Virus record (IMG/VR): IMGVR_UViG_2734482778_000013
Coordinates: 1-35,527 of that record
Origin: a virus
Lineage: Duplodnaviria > Heunggongvirae > Uroviricota > Caudoviricetes
Strand: one strand, 5' to 3'
DNA: 35,527 nt
A model generated the notes under the pieces. The model worked only from the letters and a program-made list of their open reading frames with translations. It was not told where the DNA came from and ran no database searches. Positions 25,081 through 34,025 of this stretch are shown here, piece after piece. The number at the start of each line of letters is the position of its first letter. The first letter of the stretch is position 1. A program made the position numbers and the translations under genes.

Positions 25081-25420
25081 TAAACCGCTTTACATTGATT
25101 TGCTTATCACCGGTCGCAATCTCACGCTGAACAGCGCCGCCGAACCGGTGCTGTGCAACAACAGGGAAAGCATTGCCCAGGACTGCCAGCACGCCATCAT
25201 TGAAAGCGGACTGGCAACGCGCCTGCTGGCTGAAAAAAGCCCGACGCTTCGCGCCGACATTATGATGCAGATGACACTGCTGATTGAAGATGATGAGCGC
25301 ATCACACCCGGCACGGTCAGTGTGACAGAGGAAACCCCGCTTTCCGGCCGCCTGCTGATTAGCGCCCACACCGAAGATTTTTTTGATCCCCTGACTTTTA
25401 CGGTATCTCTTGATGATTAA
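25070..25420 (+). CDS. Small baseplate protein (gpW/gp25-like or DUF2590-like)
   Basis: 116 aa from ATG 25070 with GGAG RBS; sits between tape measure and J-like gene. Confidence 0.45.
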   Translation: MHTDKPLYIDLLITGRNLTLNSAAEPVLCNNRESIAQDCQHAIIESGLATRLLAEKSPTLRADIMMQMTLLIEDDERITPGTVSVTEETPLSGRLLISAHTEDFFDPLTFTVSLDD

Positions 25421-26597
25421 CGGCAAACCAACCGCAGATTACGAGCGCATTCTGGCTGATAACGGCATGCCGGTAACCGAAGAACAGGCGCGCACTGAAT
25501 TTGAGGCCATCGTTAAAGACGAAGGGCTTATCACTAACACATCCCGCATGTCGCCGTTCTGGCGGTTGATTACAGCCATTACCACAAAGCCCGTGATGTG
25601 GCTGAAAGATGCACTGGTTAATGTGGTAATGAAAAACCTGTTTCTGGTAAGTGCCAGCGGTGTATTTGTGGATGTTTTCGCATGGGCGGTAAACCTGCAG
25701 CGCAAGGCTGCCACGCACGCAGCTGGCGTGATTCGTTTCACAAAAGACGACATTGATCACGCGGTTACCGTGCCGGCTGGTACGCAGATTCAGACAGAAC
25801 GCATTAACGGCGTGATTTATACGCTGACCGTTGTCAGGGATACCATTATTCCGGCAGGAACACTCAGCATGAACATCGATGTTTCTGCTGAACAGGCCGG
25901 AGCCGGGTTTAACCTCGCGCCGGGGTATTACCGCATTCTTCCGGTGGCGATTAATGGTATCGCCGGCGTTGAGAACGACGAAAACTGGCTGACCACGCCG
26001 GGGGCCAACGAAGAAAGCGACGACGAACTGCGTGATCGCGTTCGCAATCAGTTTAATCTTGCCGGTGCTTATCACACCGACGCTGTTTACCGGGGATTAA
26101 TTGCCGGTGTTGCCGGCATCAGTGCCGACCGCATCTATTTTTTGCATGACGCACCACGCGGCCCCGGCACAGCAAACGCTTACATTCTGCTGGATACCGG
26201 CATCGCATCCGGACCGTTCGTTGATGCAGTAAACGCATTTATTAACGATGAAGGTCATCACGGACACGGCGATGATTTGCGCTGTTTTTCCATGCCTGAA
26301 ACGCGCCATGCCCTGACCGTGACACTCTGGCTGTATGCAACACTGAACCTCAACGCTGAAGAGATACAGGCTTTATTACGCAACGTAGAGAATCTGGTCC
26401 GCTGTGCGTTTCGCGAAAACAGCGATTATGACGTTCAGAAAACATGGCCGTACAGCCGTTTCAGCATGTCCCGACTGGGCGAAGAGATCCACCAGGTATT
26501 TCCGCAGGTGGAATCGGTCACGTTTTCCCTTCCGGATATTCTCAGCGACCTGGCTGTGCCTCGCCTGGAATCCCTTATCGTGGAGGTGGGATCATGA
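25413..26597 (+). CDS. Baseplate J-like protein
   Basis: 394 aa; position before I-like and fibre genes; overlaps neighbours. Confidence 0.65.
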   Translation: MINGKPTADYERILADNGMPVTEEQARTEFEAIVKDEGLITNTSRMSPFWRLITAITTKPVMWLKDALVNVVMKNLFLVSASGVFVDVFAWAVNLQRKAATHAAGVIRFTKDDIDHAVTVPAGTQIQTERINGVIYTLTVVRDTIIPAGTLSMNIDVSAEQAGAGFNLAPGYYRILPVAINGIAGVENDENWLTTPGANEESDDELRDRVRNQFNLAGAYHTDAVYRGLIAGVAGISADRIYFLHDAPRGPGTANAYILLDTGIASGPFVDAVNAFINDEGHHGHGDDLRCFSMPETRHALTVTLWLYATLNLNAEEIQALLRNVENLVRCAFRENSDYDVQKTWPYSRFSMSRLGEEIHQVFPQVESVTFSLPDILSDLAVPRLESLIVEVGS

Positions 26598-27229
26598 ATA
26601 TTCCGGAGATGCCCGAATTCCCTCTCCCAACCTGGATGAACAAGGGAGAGCCATTAACACTGGCACATTCTTCACGTCGTTACTGGGAGAAGGTCTACAG
26701 CTGGCTGACATGGCCACTACAGCAAATTGATGTTGATACCTGCGCAGAGCCTCTGCTTAACCTGCTGGCCTATCAGCGCAACATCACCCGCTTCAGTGGG
26801 GAGCCAGTTTCATTATTTCGCTTAAGGGTAAAACACGCGTTTATCAACGCTCAGGACTCGGGCGAACGTGCCGGCTTCGAACGCATCTTTAAGCGTCTTG
26901 GCGTGGGAGAGGTAAAAACCCTGGAACGACAGCTGCAGCATGACTGGGACGTTATTTTACTGCGCATCAATGACACCCAGTTAAGCGAAAACAATGCCCT
27001 GATGATGCAGCTCGTGCGCCAGTATGGCCGTACCTGCAGGCGCTATTTCTTTCAGGTGATTAATACAACCACCGCTTACCTGACAGCCGGCACATTCAGC
27101 GGTGATTACCGGTATTACGTGGCAAAAGCGACGATACGACCAGGCACAATCAGATTAAACGCATCATTACAGGCAGGGCATTACGGATTATCCGTGGAGC
27201 ATTACACATTACAGGCAGGTAACGTATGA
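26594..27229 (+). CDS. Tail protein I-like (baseplate)
   Basis: 211 aa from ATG 26594 (ATGA overlap); motif LLNLLAYQR; J-I-H synteny. Confidence 0.6.
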   Translation: MNIPEMPEFPLPTWMNKGEPLTLAHSSRRYWEKVYSWLTWPLQQIDVDTCAEPLLNLLAYQRNITRFSGEPVSLFRLRVKHAFINAQDSGERAGFERIFKRLGVGEVKTLERQLQHDWDVILLRINDTQLSENNALMMQLVRQYGRTCRRYFFQVINTTTAYLTAGTFSGDYRYYVAKATIRPGTIRLNASLQAGHYGLSVEHYTLQAGNV

Positions 27230-28923
27230 GCACAATTATTACCGAACAATATGAAAACTGGTGCGCAGATCAGATTATCAGCGATAAACCCGCACGCCCG
27301 GATATGTTTGTTTTTGCGTATATTCCGGGACAGGATGAGTCTGCAGAAATTCCCCGTGATGAGGCTTTGCCCGATGAATCCATGATTCAGTATCGCGCGC
27401 CGGTCACTCAGTATGGACTGCTGTCCCCGAATGCTGCCGCATTTTCCATTATTCTGGACACCACTATCGGTGACTTCGAATATAACTGGATTGGCCTCAT
27501 GAACGAAGAAAGCGGCGTGCTCTGCATGATTGCACACACACCGCGCCAGCAAAAAATTAAAACAGCAAACGGCGTGCAGGGAAATAACCTTATTCGCACC
27601 TTTGCCATGGAGTTTGACGGTGCGGCTGCGGCAATGCATATCGATGTCAGTGCTGATGTCTGGCAGATTGATTTTACTGCCCGACTCGCGGGAATGGATG
27701 AATCACGTCGCCTGTTGGCATTTGATCACTACGGTGAAGCCGCCTTTCTGGGGGACGGTTTTCAGGTCAGCTATCAGGACGGTACCGCCACTGTTGCCGC
27801 CGGCGTGGGTTATGTGGGAGGCCTGCGCGTCAGTCTGCGCGAACCTTACAGCCTGCCGGCTGCGGTCGGGGATACCCTCTGGATTGATGCAAGCTGGCAG
27901 GGATTTGTTACCGGCGAATGGAATACCGTTTTTACGTTCTGCGCCCGCAAGGAATATACGTCCTATACTGACGGTAACGGCTTCCGACACTTTGTCGCGC
28001 CACTTGCAAAAATGACAGGAGACGGCCCACAGGATCTGCGCCCGGAAACACCCGACGAGGAACAAAGCAATGCGCTGGCAGAACACGAAAAATCCCGCAG
28101 ACATCCGGATGCCACACTGAACGAAAAGGGTTTTGCGCAGTACAGTAATGACACCGACAGTGACGCAGAAGACCGTGCCGCCACATCAAAGGCAGTAAAA
28201 ATCGTAATGGATAAGGCAAAAGGCGCTGTTGAGCGCGACGGCGATACCATGACTGGTGAGCTGAAAATCCGTGGTATTAATGCGCTGCGAATTTTCGACG
28301 AAGCCTTTGGTCTGATTTTTCGTCGTTCGGAAGAGTGCCTGCACCTTATCCCTACCAGTGAAGGTCAGGGCGAGAATGGCGATATTGGCTCCCTGCGTCC
28401 GTTCACCATAAATTTGCGGACGGGTGAGATATCCATGTCGCACAAAGTGTCTGTTGGCGGTGGTTCTCAGGTGCATGGTGCGCTGGGTATTGGCGTTCAG
28501 AATGCGCTGGGCGGTAACTCAATTGCTCTCGGGGATAGCGATACCGGTATAAAACAAAACGGCGACGGCCTGCTGGATATTTATGCCAATGGTCAGCACG
28601 TATTCCGTTTTCAGAATGGCGCGTTACAAAGTAACCGGGCAGTGAATGTTTCAGGGCGGGTAACACCAACTGATTATGGCAATTTCGATGAACGCTACCA
28701 GACCAGAACAGGAGGCGTGCAGAATTTTCAGTACACCAGTGAGCTGTTTTACAACCCGGGAGGGAACGAACGCAGCTGGACGTTCCGCGCACCGCCTGGC
28801 TGCACCCTGTCCGGCATTCTGGTTCAGGATACCGGGAGCAACTCTGCGGATAATATCGGTGGCGTGTATTACAAACAGGCTCAGATTTATATAAATGGCG
28901 CATGGCGTTCTGTGTCAGGTTAA
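27226..28923 (+). CDS. Tail fibre protein 1 (P2 gpH-like C-terminal region)
   Basis: Collar-like motif EHEKSRRHPDATLNEKGFAQ; C-terminal NALGGNSIALGDSDTGIKQNGDGLLDIYANGQHVFRFQNG and INGAWRSV parallel P2 H as recalled. Confidence 0.85.
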   Translation: MSTIITEQYENWCADQIISDKPARPDMFVFAYIPGQDESAEIPRDEALPDESMIQYRAPVTQYGLLSPNAAAFSIILDTTIGDFEYNWIGLMNEESGVLCMIAHTPRQQKIKTANGVQGNNLIRTFAMEFDGAAAAMHIDVSADVWQIDFTARLAGMDESRRLLAFDHYGEAAFLGDGFQVSYQDGTATVAAGVGYVGGLRVSLREPYSLPAAVGDTLWIDASWQGFVTGEWNTVFTFCARKEYTSYTDGNGFRHFVAPLAKMTGDGPQDLRPETPDEEQSNALAEHEKSRRHPDATLNEKGFAQYSNDTDSDAEDRAATSKAVKIVMDKAKGAVERDGDTMTGELKIRGINALRIFDEAFGLIFRRSEECLHLIPTSEGQGENGDIGSLRPFTINLRTGEISMSHKVSVGGGSQVHGALGIGVQNALGGNSIALGDSDTGIKQNGDGLLDIYANGQHVFRFQNGALQSNRAVNVSGRVTPTDYGNFDERYQTRTGGVQNFQYTSELFYNPGGNERSWTFRAPPGCTLSGILVQDTGSNSADNIGGVYYKQAQIYINGAWRSVSG

Positions 28924-28937
28924 TTAAGGAGAAAACA

Positions 28938-29474
28938 ATGGAGCTCAGAAATGTTACGCGTTACTACCCTGAAGATATGCCTTATGGTGAAGGCATTCAG
29001 TATTTCCGTAGTGAAGACGGGCAGGATTTTTATGAATCACTGGATAAATTCACGAAGAAATACAAGCTGTGCACGCATCCTGAAACCGGCGTTATTTATT
29101 CAATGGCGGAAGACGTATCCCGGCTTTATCCGGCAGGTTTTACCATTGTGGAAGCGGATGAATTACCCGAAGGTTTTTGTATTGAAGCACGTTGGTATTA
29201 TAAAGATGGCGCAGTTCTTCCTGTTCCTGTTGACTACAGACAGCGGGCGGAGTCGGAGCGTGCGCGTTTTATAGAGATTGTTGAACGGGAAATATCCGAT
29301 AAAAAGACAGACTTGCTGCTGGGGTTAATCAGCGATGAAGACAAGGAAAAGCTGAAAGTCTGGCGTATTTATACAAAAACGTTACGAGAGATGACATTCA
29401 GTCAGGTTACAGATAAATCATCGTATGCCGCAATTGTATGGCCAGAATTACCGCAGAATATTAGCGAGAATTAA
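28938..29474 (+). CDS. Tail fibre assembly protein (P2 gpG/Tfa-like)
   Basis: 178 aa directly downstream of fibre 1; AAGGAG RBS; lower GC than head genes. Confidence 0.7.
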   Translation: MELRNVTRYYPEDMPYGEGIQYFRSEDGQDFYESLDKFTKKYKLCTHPETGVIYSMAEDVSRLYPAGFTIVEADELPEGFCIEARWYYKDGAVLPVPVDYRQRAESERARFIEIVEREISDKKTDLLLGLISDEDKEKLKVWRIYTKTLREMTFSQVTDKSSYAAIVWPELPQNISEN

Positions 29475-29480
29475 GAAGTA

Positions 29481-31037
29481 ATGAGCGCACTGTTAACGAA
29501 ATCATTTGAAAAGTGGGTTGCTGAATGCACAGCCAGTAATTTACCTGCACGTCCTGATGCCATTATTTTTGCCCTGATGGAGCGGGAGCCGACGCGCGAA
29601 GATGATGCCATCCCGGAAGAAAAAATCACATATATTGTTAATGAACTGACCTATGGGCAGTTAAGTCAGAACAATATTGTGTGTAGTGCCGTTGTTCCCG
29701 ATGACTCCGCATTCAGTTATGACTGGATTTGCCTCATCCATCAGGCCAGCAGAACATTGTGCGGCGTAATAAAAACGCCTGTTCGACAAAAAGTAACAGG
29801 CGAGTCACTTATTCGTAATTTCACGATTATATACAGCGGCATTGCTCAGTCTGCACAAGTCACGGCCCCTCCGCAGAGCTGGCAGGTGGATATCACTCCG
29901 GAACTGAAAACAGCACTGAAAGCACCTAATCGCCTGTCAGAAATTGCTGATGAGGGCAAAGAGGCACAACAGGAATCACGCGATAATCTCGGGCTAAAAA
30001 AAGCGGCCACAATGGAACCTCAGAATGGTATCCGTGACCGTTCTGAAGGTCGTCTGGCGACACCTGGTGCATTTGGTTTTGGTCACAGGTTTATTCCGGG
30101 GGAGGCCGTCAGGTTTAAATCTGAGGCTGATTTTCTGGCATGGGCAAGATATGTGGAGCCAGGAGAATATTATGTGGATGGGGCAAACGGTGTACTTCCC
30201 GGCATTGTTTTTCAGGGGGTGATAAGTATCCGCTGGCTGGAAGCAAACCATAACCCACCACTTCCGTTACATACAGCAAAGGCCATTATTTTCTACGGCA
30301 TTAATGGCAATATTTATTACAACCGTTACTGGTCCACTGGTAATGGCTGGCTGACTGGCTGGGAAAACCTGAAAGTAAACGAGGTTGCACTCAGGGAACT
30401 TATTAAAACAAGGGCTCCTCTGGAAAGCCCGGAATTCACAGGAAAGCCGACTACACCAACACCGCCGGATGATGCAGCAGGTAATGAAATTGCCAGTGTG
30501 GCCTTTGTTCGCAAACAGATGGAATCTCTTGACACCACTTCACCAGAGGGTCCCGAAATTTCTTCTGCGCCGACCAATTTACTGTCCAGACAACAATCCG
30601 GAGACTTATTTGTTGATGGCGCTCATCCGGTCATTCCAAAGGTGGCTGTAAGTACCCTGAACAGCAACCTGGATTCATTTAAAAGTCTGCCGGATGGTTC
30701 ACGTATTTATGCTATGGAACTGGATGTATCTAATCCTGTCAGGAAATCCTCTGTTGGAGGAGTGGGTATCGCTGTTTCTGCTCTGCTCGAACCACGTTAT
30801 CTCTACATGAATCAGAACCGACAATACATTCCTGCTCAGTATTTTGTCGGTTCTGTCTCGGCTACCGCGAGCACAATAACAGTAAGAATACGGGTGGTGA
30901 TGCCAGACACACCTTACTATGCACTGGATACATCGACACTGGAGGAGACAGCCAGCGCAAAAAATGGACCTCTTCCCTGTATTGTGGTGGCAAAAATATT
31001 TGCGGGAACAACATTACGCCAGAACGGAATGGGGTAA
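29481..31037 (+). CDS. Tail fibre protein 2 (shared N-terminal domain, distinct distal domain)
   Basis: N-terminal ~150 aa align with fibre 1 (PARPD, F.Y.WI.LI, LIR.F, WQVDIT); collar motif LESPEFTGKPTTPTPPDDAAGNEIASVAFV; lower GC. Confidence 0.75.
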   Translation: MSALLTKSFEKWVAECTASNLPARPDAIIFALMEREPTREDDAIPEEKITYIVNELTYGQLSQNNIVCSAVVPDDSAFSYDWICLIHQASRTLCGVIKTPVRQKVTGESLIRNFTIIYSGIAQSAQVTAPPQSWQVDITPELKTALKAPNRLSEIADEGKEAQQESRDNLGLKKAATMEPQNGIRDRSEGRLATPGAFGFGHRFIPGEAVRFKSEADFLAWARYVEPGEYYVDGANGVLPGIVFQGVISIRWLEANHNPPLPLHTAKAIIFYGINGNIYYNRYWSTGNGWLTGWENLKVNEVALRELIKTRAPLESPEFTGKPTTPTPPDDAAGNEIASVAFVRKQMESLDTTSPEGPEISSAPTNLLSRQQSGDLFVDGAHPVIPKVAVSTLNSNLDSFKSLPDGSRIYAMELDVSNPVRKSSVGGVGIAVSALLEPRYLYMNQNRQYIPAQYFVGSVSATASTITVRIRVVMPDTPYYALDTSTLEETASAKNGPLPCIVVAKIFAGTTLRQNGMG

Positions 31038-31061
31038 TATCCGGACACACAGGAAGAACAA

Positions 31062-31784
31062 ATGAACAATTCAACATGGATACGCTCTGTTTTGCGACCA
31101 GCCCCCATAGCTATTACCTGTTCAATGGTTTGCCTCCACCCATGGTCAGAAAATACGGGAAACATTACACCATCAGGGCGTTACCTCAGCCCGGATAATG
31201 CTGTATCCGCGCTTTTACCTTATCTGACAGAAAACACAGAAAAAGACGTTGTGGCGCTGTTATTTTGCGCCCCGTCTGCTGGCGAGTTTTTATCACTCGC
31301 CAGGCAATTTTCAGGCGCATTTCCGTTACCAGAGGTGGGACGAATGTCCCGCATGATCTCCAGCCAGTTTTCACTGGCCATCAGCAGAATGCAAATCCCC
31401 GCCAGACCGGTAACATCACTTCCGGAACCGATAATGCTATCGACACAGACCACTCGCAGCATGTCGCTGGCGGCAACCATTGCACAGGCAGCCACTCCTG
31501 CCGTCACATCACCGGAAACATTGTCATCATCACTGCGTCAGTTCATGAATGCGAGAGATAAAGCCTTACAGGAAATCGCTGATCAGCAGGCCGCACTCCG
31601 GCAAAAATTTTGCCCGGTGTGGCGCTTTTGCCACAAGGGAGCCCTTAGCCAGGCCGCAGTGCTGATACAAAAAAACATCCCACACCCCGAGTGGGTTTTT
31701 ACAGCTGTGATGCTGTTTGTCGGTAATGATCTTTCATCACTAAGAGAATCACTACATGACCCAGATGATCGTTCTTGCACTTGA
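31062..31784 (+). CDS. Hypothetical protein (possible fibre-2 accessory/chaperone or moron)
   Basis: 240 aa, AGGAAG RBS; Ser/Ala/Thr-rich; no recognised domain. Confidence 0.45.
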   Translation: MNNSTWIRSVLRPAPIAITCSMVCLHPWSENTGNITPSGRYLSPDNAVSALLPYLTENTEKDVVALLFCAPSAGEFLSLARQFSGAFPLPEVGRMSRMISSQFSLAISRMQIPARPVTSLPEPIMLSTQTTRSMSLAATIAQAATPAVTSPETLSSSLRQFMNARDKALQEIADQQAALRQKFCPVWRFCHKGALSQAAVLIQKNIPHPEWVFTAVMLFVGNDLSSLRESLHDPDDRSCT

Positions 31785-32331
31785 CGGGGAAGCCATTCTG
31801 TTACGCAACATCACCGTCAGCGCCACCATGCAACTACCGGATAAAGATATGTCCGGACAGTCAACCAGCACCACCAGTGCTCAGCAGGGAAGCAAGGCTA
31901 AAGAGCTGCGTGTATCAGGCGTCATTGATTTTAATGATGAAGCTGTTCTGACCCGTATATTTCAACTTGCAGAAGCCACAGAAAGCAACGGGGCTAAAAA
32001 AACATACCGCATCGCCAACGCTACTGCTAAGGCGATTAATATGCGACAGGGTGTTTTTTCGGGCGGTATTGATGCAACGGAACAACAGGGCAAGATGCAC
32101 TGGCAGGTCACCTTTACTCTCAGGGAAAAATTAAGCGTGCCGGAAAAAGCATCGGCACGCAGTGGCTCACAGAAAACAATCGCAAAGCAGCAGACACAGA
32201 ACGGCAGTGAGCAGGCACCGGATAAAGGAATAAATACCCAGGAGACTTTCTGGAAAAATATCAATGATGGTATTGGCTCCGGGCTGGACTGGATTGGCAT
32301 CGGGAGCGTGAAAGAGGAAGGGAAAACATGA
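31756..32331 (+). CDS. Putative tail/baseplate-associated protein
   Basis: 191 aa; ATGA-coupled to downstream hub/spike gene; function from context only. Confidence 0.4.
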   Translation: MTQMIVLALDGEAILLRNITVSATMQLPDKDMSGQSTSTTSAQQGSKAKELRVSGVIDFNDEAVLTRIFQLAEATESNGAKKTYRIANATAKAINMRQGVFSGGIDATEQQGKMHWQVTFTLREKLSVPEKASARSGSQKTIAKQQTQNGSEQAPDKGINTQETFWKNINDGIGSGLDWIGIGSVKEEGKT

Positions 32332-34025
32332 AATTAATCCAACGTTGCATGATTAATGGCGAGCTGGCGGAAATTGCCGATATCAGCCTTGTTCTTACCC
32401 TGAATGCTGCAGGTCGCGGCTTCATTTCTGTTAATAATCTGTCACCGGAAAAAAGCCTTGCCGGCGCAATGATACAAATTGATCTCGGCCGTAATGGTGA
32501 GGCATGGCGCTATTTCTCCGGCTACATTGAGCGCGATCAACCCGCCGAAAATGGCTCACGCCGCCTTTTTATCCGTGAAGCAGCTGCCGTGCTGGATTTT
32601 GATTTCCCCTGCTCCATGCAACATCCAACGTTACGGGATGTACTCGATAATCTGGGTAAACAAAGCGGCATCGTTTTCATCACGCCAGAAGCGGATTATG
32701 TCGGTACACCGACACCTTACATCACCCACAGCGGCAGCGGAGCACAACTGCTCAGCCAGCTGGGGCGAGCATTCAGTATCAGCGATTACGTCTGGCATCC
32801 AATGCCGGACGGTTCCGTATTTGTGGGAAGCGCACCGGATTCACGGTTTGCCAGTATTACCATGCCGGATATTCCGCAACAGTACACTCTCGGGCAAAGC
32901 GGCGGAAACAGCATCGACATCATGTTTATGGAAACTGTGCGACCGGGCGTGAACCTTCCGGCCGGGCGCATTACCCGTGTAGCCCTCAACAACGAGAAAA
33001 TGACCCTGACATGGGAACGCCTTACCGCCACGGGTAGCCCTGTTTCCAAATCACCATTACGCAGACAGATGGAAACACAGTTCCCGGAACTGGCCAGCGG
33101 CACTCTACATACTAGGCTGGCGCGCGTCATTGCACCAACGGAATCCGTCACCCTGGGCGATATTGCCGACAGCTTCCGCCCACGCTACGCCGTCGATGTG
33201 CAACTGCTTGATGAGAACGGCAACGATAAAAGCGATACGCCTGTTTATCCGGCAGTACCACTCCCCGTCCCGATGGCTGGTAGCGAGGCGGGATGTTTTG
33301 CCTACCCGCCGGCAGGCACCATCGTGGAAATATCCAACATTGAAGGGCGACCGGATAAACCTGTCATCAGGCAAATCTTACCCGCGGGCCATAACCTGCC
33401 TGATGTAAAGCCCGGCGAACAGCTGCAGCAACAGCGCGCAGAAGTGTTTCAGCGCGTCACGACTGACGGAAGCTGGCACAGAGAAACTGACCAGCAAATC
33501 AGGGAGCATTCAGCCAGGCGAACCATTAACAGCGATCAGGAAGAACGCACAACAACAACCAGAACAACAACAGTCCAGGCAAACGACATAACCAGTGTTC
33601 TTGGTACCAGTAAGCTGATGACAGGCCAGACAGAACACCTTACTACCGGCAATTATGCGATCGCAGCCGGTGAGCATATCCAGATGGTAGCGCAGGATTT
33701 GCTGACTCAACTCAAAGGGGCGATATCCACCATTGAGCATGACCTCACCGAAAACGTGGGAGGCCGCAGAACATGCAGGGCGGACGGCGGTCTGGAGTTT
33801 ACCGCCCCGACAGTATTTATTGGTCGCGGCGGCTCGCGGGAAAAGTCCGGGCTTAACCTGCTGACGTTGCTGATCGATATTCTGGATCTGATTCAATTGC
33901 TGGCCACACATACAGCAAACCACACCCATAGCAACACAGGCACGCCAATGAACAGCGGCGAACTTGCCGCAGATGCCCTGCAGGCGACGAGTCTGCGCGA
34001 AAAATACGGCGACATTATCGCCTGA
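32328..34025 (+). CDS. Baseplate hub/central spike protein (gpD/gpV-like fusion, VgrG-like)
   Basis: 565 aa; C-terminal His-rich apex-like motif HTANHTHSNTGTPMN; large size and terminal position in tail module. Confidence 0.55.
   Translation: MKLIQRCMINGELAEIADISLVLTLNAAGRGFISVNNLSPEKSLAGAMIQIDLGRNGEAWRYFSGYIERDQPAENGSRRLFIREAAAVLDFDFPCSMQHPTLRDVLDNLGKQSGIVFITPEADYVGTPTPYITHSGSGAQLLSQLGRAFSISDYVWHPMPDGSVFVGSAPDSRFASITMPDIPQQYTLGQSGGNSIDIMFMETVRPGVNLPAGRITRVALNNEKMTLTWERLTATGSPVSKSPLRRQMETQFPELASGTLHTRLARVIAPTESVTLGDIADSFRPRYAVDVQLLDENGNDKSDTPVYPAVPLPVPMAGSEAGCFAYPPAGTIVEISNIEGRPDKPVIRQILPAGHNLPDVKPGEQLQQQRAEVFQRVTTDGSWHRETDQQIREHSARRTINSDQEERTTTTRTTTVQANDITSVLGTSKLMTGQTEHLTTGNYAIAAGEHIQMVAQDLLTQLKGAISTIEHDLTENVGGRRTCRADGGLEFTAPTVFIGRGGSREKSGLNLLTLLIDILDLIQLLATHTANHTHSNTGTPMNSGELAADALQATSLREKYGDIIA

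Follow-up and report, generated by a model that had tools for sequence, protein, structure and literature searches.

Two fibre genes with diverged DUF3751 attachment domains in the tail module of an HP1-type prophage lineage of Escherichia and Yersinia

P2-type phages and R-pyocins have been described with a single fibre type (PMC6363177), and our literature searches turned up no account of a two-fibre arrangement in Peduoviridae or in HP1-like prophages of E. coli. The stretch of DNA analyzed here (35,527 nucleotides of a virus of the class Caudoviricetes, IMG/VR record IMGVR_UViG_2734482778_000013; hereafter "the window"), however, carries two tail fibre genes within one such tail module. 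This raises the question of whether both genes encode functional receptor-binding proteins and, if so, how a simple baseplate would carry the two of them.

Gene order and borders of the fibre region

By homology and gene order the window is a prophage of E. coli and belongs to the P2 family (Peduoviridae), in which it falls into the HP1 branch. Head genes of the P2 type are accompanied by a tail module in the HP1-type order TMP - DUF2590 - Baseplate_J - Tail_P2_I - fibre - Tfa - orf33 - orf34 - orf35, backed by Pfam matches to PF10145, PF10761, PF04865, PF09684, PF25759, DUF2586, HP1_Orf24, Phage_cap_P2, GPO and GPA, and the extra fibre gene is its sole departure from the HP1-type tail module. 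The features of the region are collected in Table 1.

Table 1. Features of the fibre region and its flanks (positions in the window)
Feature	Position	Strand	Size or residues	Evidence and remarks
Baseplate wedge protein, P2 gpJ / HP1 orf29 type	25410-26597	+		PF04865 Baseplate_J, E 1e-31; phrog_6 baseplate wedge subunit
Tail protein, P2 gpI / HP1 orf30 type	26594-27229	+	211 aa	PF09684 Tail_P2_I, E 7e-5; phrog_1228, E 8.5e-82
Fibre 1	27226-28923	+	565 aa	PF12571 N-domain; orthologue of the single fibre of HP1-type phages
Fibre 1, N-domain	27226-27690	+		PF12571, 98.0 bits; kept across the lineage
Tfa, fibre 1 assembly chaperone	28938-29474	+	178 aa	PF02413 Caudo_TAP, E 3e-16; phrog_136, E 9e-51
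Fibre 2	29481-31037	+	518 aa	Intact ORF; PF12571 N-domain
Fibre 2, N-domain	29481-29915	+	aa 1-145	PF12571/DUF3751, 38.5 bits; diverged paralogue of the baseplate-attachment domain
Fibre 2, shaft	29916-30551	+	aa 146-357	Linker, globular "mid" domain (about aa 201-300), SPxFTGxPTxPT junction motif (aa 301-357)
Fibre 2, tip	30552-31037	+	aa 358-518	Predicted beta-sandwich receptor-binding domain, H-type-lectin / R-pyocin "foot" kind
HP1 orf33 homologue	31062-31784	+	240 aa	BLASTP, 30% identity to SI7 gp22 (E 2e-31), 24% to HP1 orf33 (E 2e-17)
HP1 orf34, baseplate complex protein	31756-32331	+		PF25759 HP1_ORF34, E 2.8e-53
orf35-type baseplate protein	32328-34025	+		phrog_2258 baseplate protein, E 4.5e-233; tblastn, 42-47% identity to orf35 of HP1, HP2, SI7 and ESSI-2

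The open reading frames lie exactly where the initial annotation had placed them (27226-28923, 28902-29474, 29481-31037 and 31062-31784), and the Caudo_TAP match confirms its Tfa gene between the two fibres. The longest Tfa frame, 28902-29474, would encode 190 aa; an AAGGAG ribosome-binding site precedes the ATG at 28938, which is the likely real start and yields the 178-aa protein. Fibre 1, Tfa and fibre 2 are intact and share one orientation, the gpI stop codon overlaps the start of fibre 1, with Tfa downstream, the intergenic gaps in the fibre region measure 6-24 nt, and neither an intrinsic terminator nor a promoter-like site that would be convincing was found between the fibre-region genes. 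In every related locus a gpI-type gene lies directly 5' of the fibre gene; its product and the gpJ-type wedge protein are each probably part of the fibre docking site.

HP1 and SI7 possess a single fibre gene and Tfa, followed by orf33-35. From this comparison the ancestral fibre module of the HP1 branch appears to be gpJ - gpI - fibre - Tfa - orf33 - orf34 - orf35, into which a second fibre was seemingly gained between Tfa and orf33 in one Escherichia/Yersinia lineage. The 240-aa gene behind fibre 2, previously regarded as an unknown within the variable cassette, turned out to be a homologue of HP1 orf33, found at the same position in every one-fibre locus that covers this position; it was accordingly rejected as a cassette member or chaperone and is best classified, by homology, as a conserved tail/baseplate-module gene outside the variable cassette. 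As single-fibre phages also have orf33, the right end of the variable region lies at about 31040 and not at 31784, and orf34 and orf35 form the conserved right border of the fibre region. The low GC content that had been noted for 28.9-31.8 kb holds for Tfa (GC 0.434, GC3 0.413) and fibre 2 (GC 0.47-0.49, GC3 0.40-0.455) against the portal, terminase, scaffold, capsid and sheath genes (GC 0.51-0.55, GC3 0.56-0.65), but orf33 is only slightly low (GC 0.503, GC3 0.477). Because other parts of the window, core regions among them, are as AT-rich as Tfa and fibre 2, GC alone is weak evidence of horizontal transfer.

The second attachment domain and its distribution

The alignment of fibre 1 with fibre 2 is confined to the first ~157 residues (34% identity, E 3e-23), and both N-domains score above the Pfam gathering cut-off for PF12571 (23 bits), which bears out the proposal of a shared N-domain of ~150 aa followed by unrelated distal parts. 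PF12571 was matched by all ten fibre 2 variants tested, AF2 gave a pLDDT of about 70-90 over residues 1-125 of fibre 2, and the most N-terminal motifs, LPARPD and Y-x-W-I-x-L, are common to both N-domains. Within a locus the fibre 1-type and fibre 2 domains are 36-42% identical, and the fibre 2 domain is 33-37% identical to the fibre 1 domain of the window, versus at least 44% for orthologous HP1-group domains compared with the same fibre 1 domain. The fibre 2 N-domain exhibits two lineage-fixed deletions, of 5 and 6 aa, and is monophyletic, branching as the sister group of all HP1-group fibre N-domains. Simple pairwise Nei-Gojobori estimates of dN/dS are 0.08-0.17 for this domain, with dS reaching values above 1, and lie at about 0.04 for the fibre 1 N-domain, which is 89-100% identical across the lineage. 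The two copies show no trace of gene conversion, and the only nucleotide repeat linking them is a 21-nt match at 76%, i.e. at chance level. The fibre 2 N-domain is thus an old, separately conserved paralogue under purifying selection. A recent in situ duplication of the N-domain was rejected, given the 36-42% identity of the paralogues and the branching of the fibre 2 domain outside all HP1-group fibre domains.

The fibre 2 N-domain contains 4-6 cysteines versus 0-3 in fibre-1-type domains, and orf33 contains 5-7 in the two-fibre lineage versus 1-5 (mostly 1-3) elsewhere; these counts are suggestive of a disulphide-linked partner and are confounded by phylogeny.

Analysis of related loci reveals a sharp distribution of the two-fibre arrangement. 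Together with a full-length fibre 2 ORF it is present in every one of the 16 close-relative loci, the window among them, that span the entire fibre region and have an orf34 of at least 87% identity. Among more distant HP1-group loci (orf34 at most 66% identical) 52 have one fibre and none has two, five further distant loci being cut contigs or lacking a fibre match. Of 5,426 complete E. coli genomes, 48 contain the fibre 2 N-domain and precisely these 48 contain orf33-34, so that the lineage is present in about 0.9% of them, STEC and ETEC isolates included. Yersinia kristensenii has the same gene order, with the second fibre split into two ORFs and possibly disrupted, and in E. albertii the second fibre measures 285 aa and a separate ORF of 352 aa comes after it. 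Homologue searches with short queries gave short or partial proteins, which limits the depth of the alignments. In phage records the gpH-like N-domain was matched at 443 places in 437 records and the HP1-group N-domain at 80 places in 78 records; the sole phage with two places, ESSI2_ev239 (two records), has one fibre gene at the locus. On the available genomes the second fibre is a fixed trait of one prophage lineage (E. coli, E. albertii, Yersinia), in which only the distal modules turn over.

Exchangeable distal parts and chaperones

In fibre 1 the N-domain and the proximal shaft are conserved within the lineage to about position 28200, and the distal part (about 28200-28923) is exchangeable, with recombination breakpoints at about 28200, 28619 and 28885. 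Together with Tfa, this distal part shows 84.5% nucleotide identity to tail1/tail2 of phage Rac-SA53. The N-terminal two thirds of Tfa co-vary with the fibre 1 tip (breakpoints at 28885 and 29309), the C-terminal ~55 aa (from 29309) are conserved, and the protein is 27% identical to P2 gpG (E 4e-20). Fibre 1 contains a Phage_fiber_2 repeat at aa 297-335. Its suggested distal resemblance to P2 gpH is real, but patchy and limited to short conserved fibre motifs (70% identity at aa 416-465, 60% at aa 284-333, 28% over the last ~90 aa).

In fibre 2 breakpoints are located at 29891-29915 and 30516, and throughout the fibre region breakpoints coincide with domain borders. A module table of 132 homologues reveals that the shaft modules recombine independently; the shaft is 48-50% identical to phiP27 L56 and Rac-SA53 tail3, and its junction motif aligns with aa 251-329 of P2 gpH (E 4e-8). 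The closest counterparts of the distal region are second fibres of Mu-like prophages with a PF08400 N-domain, which match positions 29914-31094 at 84% and 29914-31060 at 78% nucleotide identity, with up to 95% amino-acid identity in the tip. Fibre 2 possesses PF12571 instead of PF08400 and has its distal modules in common with the PF08400 proteins P0019, P0022, P0034, P0049, P0057 and P0121. All of fibre 2 beyond the N-domain is thus a mobile module from a pool common to other E. coli prophages. The idea of a horizontally acquired second module consequently applies to the distal 1.1 kb, which has been exchanged, and not to the slot itself, which is lineage-fixed and not recent.

AF2 modelled full-length fibre 2 poorly (mean pLDDT 54.7), and a Foldseek search with this model gave weak matches only. 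When modelled separately, the tip is predicted to be lectin-like and to resemble the R-pyocin fibre "foot", the fold class used for comparison being a beta-sandwich superposable on Helix pomatia agglutinin, discoidin I and the R1/R2 pyocin fibre foot. No chaperone gene follows fibre 2 in the window. Behind most of the other fibre 2 tips in HP1-type loci lies a gene encoding DUF4376, a domain known from fibre chaperones (PMC7289586); behind the lectin-like tip these loci never have such a gene. Among Mu-like loci, L092 (tip 55% identical) has no chaperone gene after the fibre, yet L093 (tip 95% identical) has a 100-aa DUF4376 gene downstream, and because of the latter the chaperone independence of the lectin-like tip is evident only within HP1-type loci.

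Docking, receptor use and known systems

The reading we favour, with a probability of about 0.6, is that the prophage has two functional fibres, which dock through their own versions of the N-domain, carry exchangeable distal parts and confer two receptor specificities. Both fibres would be made from the same late operon, which is established in part, and each fibre trimer would dock on the baseplate wedge via its own version of DUF3751/PF12571. As the N-domains are old paralogues, each conserved in its own right, they would most likely be placed at two non-equivalent sites, so that a virion would carry six fibres of each kind. PDB sequence searches with fibre 2, a PF12571 profile, orf33, orf34, orf35 and gpJ returned nothing usable; since no structure of an HP1-type baseplate or of PF12571 was found by sequence, we purely infer the docking site and stoichiometry. 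Beyond the N-domains, modules are exchanged with a pool of other E. coli prophages. The tip of fibre 1 would be Tfa-dependent, of the Mu S / P2 H kind, and that of fibre 2 a chaperone-independent lectin-like beta-sandwich that would most likely bind a surface glycan, for instance LPS or O-antigen. A second intact fibre with its own diverged attachment domain and a tip of the sugar-binding type makes dual receptor use likely, and recombination could then re-assort the two specificities of the virion independently.

A broader and more tentative model, to which we give somewhat less than even odds, pictures a minimal HP1/P2-type baseplate with twelve fibres of two kinds, in which duplicated and specialised DUF3751 adaptors fit two non-equivalent wedge positions, the second being a free slot for any distal module of the E. 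coli prophage pool. PF08400 would be the adaptor for the same modules on Mu-type tails, and the adaptors would act as lineage-specific plugs for a cross-family module library.

Two functional fibres might instead compete for the same six sockets, so that mixed or two-kind virions would provide phenotypic heterogeneity (bet-hedging) rather than a fixed 6+6 arrangement. We consider this unlikely, with an appreciable chance nonetheless: the two N-domains belong to one Pfam family and have LPARPD and Y-x-W-I-x-L in common, the two-fibre lineage has no extra wedge gene (gpI, orf33 and orf34 are of similar length in two-fibre and one-fibre groups), and P2-type phages and R-pyocins are described with one fibre type, as cited above. 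Against shared sockets, the fibre 2 domain is further from the fibre 1 domain of the window than is any HP1-group orthologue, and the baseplates on which the orthologues dock have presumably diverged to a similar extent. Its two fixed loop deletions, its extra cysteines and the lack of a gene conversion signal likewise fit, without proving, a different binding environment. A decaying or silent recombination relic, not assembled into virions, is an improbable account of fibre 2. Its ribosome-binding site is weak (AAGAAG, with short spacing), the window holds no chaperone gene for it, its GC3 lies below that of the head genes, the Yersinia copy is split, and in two genomes NCBI PGAP annotates the orthologue as a pseudogene, labelling the intact mosaic gene as a pseudogene plus a "shikimate transporter" fragment. 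However, the reading frame is unbroken in these two loci as it is in the window, so the "pseudogene" is an annotation artefact of a mosaic protein; full-length ORFs in all 16 two-fibre loci, the low dN/dS, the perfect co-occurrence in 48 genomes, a chaperone presence that tracks tip type within HP1-type loci and the retention of the same distal module as second fibre in an unrelated tail lineage also argue against decay.

Branched receptor-binding complexes are known from G7C, DT57C and CBA120, and it is conceivable, if quite improbable, that fibre 2 sits off the baseplate in a similar manner, branching from fibre 1 or binding another tail protein. The slot can hold a short adaptor-like protein and a separate ORF, as in E. 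albertii, and orf33, which adjoins fibre 2, is in this lineage unusually cysteine-rich, like the fibre 2 N-domain; that N-domain, however, is homologous to a domain assigned to baseplate attachment (PMC6363177), and neither fibre gave a match to a gp10-like domain or to another branching adaptor. Mu S/S' and P1 are characterised by alternative fibres that have their N-terminal part in common (PMC11821841), which would suggest a genetic switch of the invertible G/C type, with one fibre made at a time. We give this virtually no credence and reject an invertible segment at the sequence level: both genes are complete, on the same strand, each with its own start codon and N-domain, inverted repeats in 26500-32400 do not exceed 19 nt (79% complementarity), and a Pfam scan of 30 window proteins revealed no invertase domain.

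P2-family phages and R-type pyocins serve as chassis for retargeted antibacterials, and here a natural, widespread prophage lineage has retained a pair of DUF3751 fibres whose adaptor domains differ. Provided that both are assembled, two specificities would be displayed at once on a simple baseplate, which would offer a route to engineering dual-target phages or tailocins. The lineage also provides a clean example of one receptor-binding module moved between two tail architectures with only the N-terminal adaptor changed, and it exposes the PGAP artefact.

Among known systems, the closest are the P2 gpH, HP1 orf31 and R-pyocin PA0620 fibres, whose N-domain (PF12571, i.e. DUF3751) is common to both fibres of the window. 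DUF3751 has been assigned to baseplate attachment, and R-pyocins are retargeted when the part that lies downstream of it is swapped (PMC6363177, PMC4684702, PMC13280938). As in these systems, fibre 1 follows gpJ-gpI and precedes a Caudo_TAP chaperone, its variable C-terminal part setting specificity, and the "foot" fold of R-pyocin fibres is predicted in the fibre 2 tip; unlike them, the lineage has a second, diverged PF12571 fibre, in the window without a chaperone of its own. Mu/phiP27-like prophages (phiP27 L54-L57, Rac-SA53 tail1-tail4, metagenomic L092/L093) share the order fibre - Tfa - second fibre (- DUF4376 chaperone), and the distal part of their second fibres is homologous to that of fibre 2, but these second fibres have a PF08400 N-domain, which they do not share with their own first fibre, and the tails are of the Mu type rather than the HP1 type. 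Mu G and P1 C segments also provide two alternative distal fibre parts, each with a chaperone and directed to different receptors; their single constant N-terminal exon, their variable exons in opposite orientation, the invertase and the inverted repeats are all absent from the window. Structural models for more than six fibres on a simple contractile-tail baseplate are available from cryo-EM: Shigella phage Sf14 carries two long fibre sets on a Mu-like baseplate, with a near-identical short motif in the baseplate-binding region of the fibre proteins, and in cyanophage Pam3 a single protein forms all 12 fibres, one N-terminus binding two non-equivalent wedge positions (PMC11821841). Sf14 (virulent, FelixO1-like) and Pam3 are described as unrelated in sequence and are set beside the window from their published description, the arrangement proposed for the window being deduced from its genes. 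Against this background the two-fibre arrangement is an unusual, not a revolutionary, variant of known phage host-range modules.

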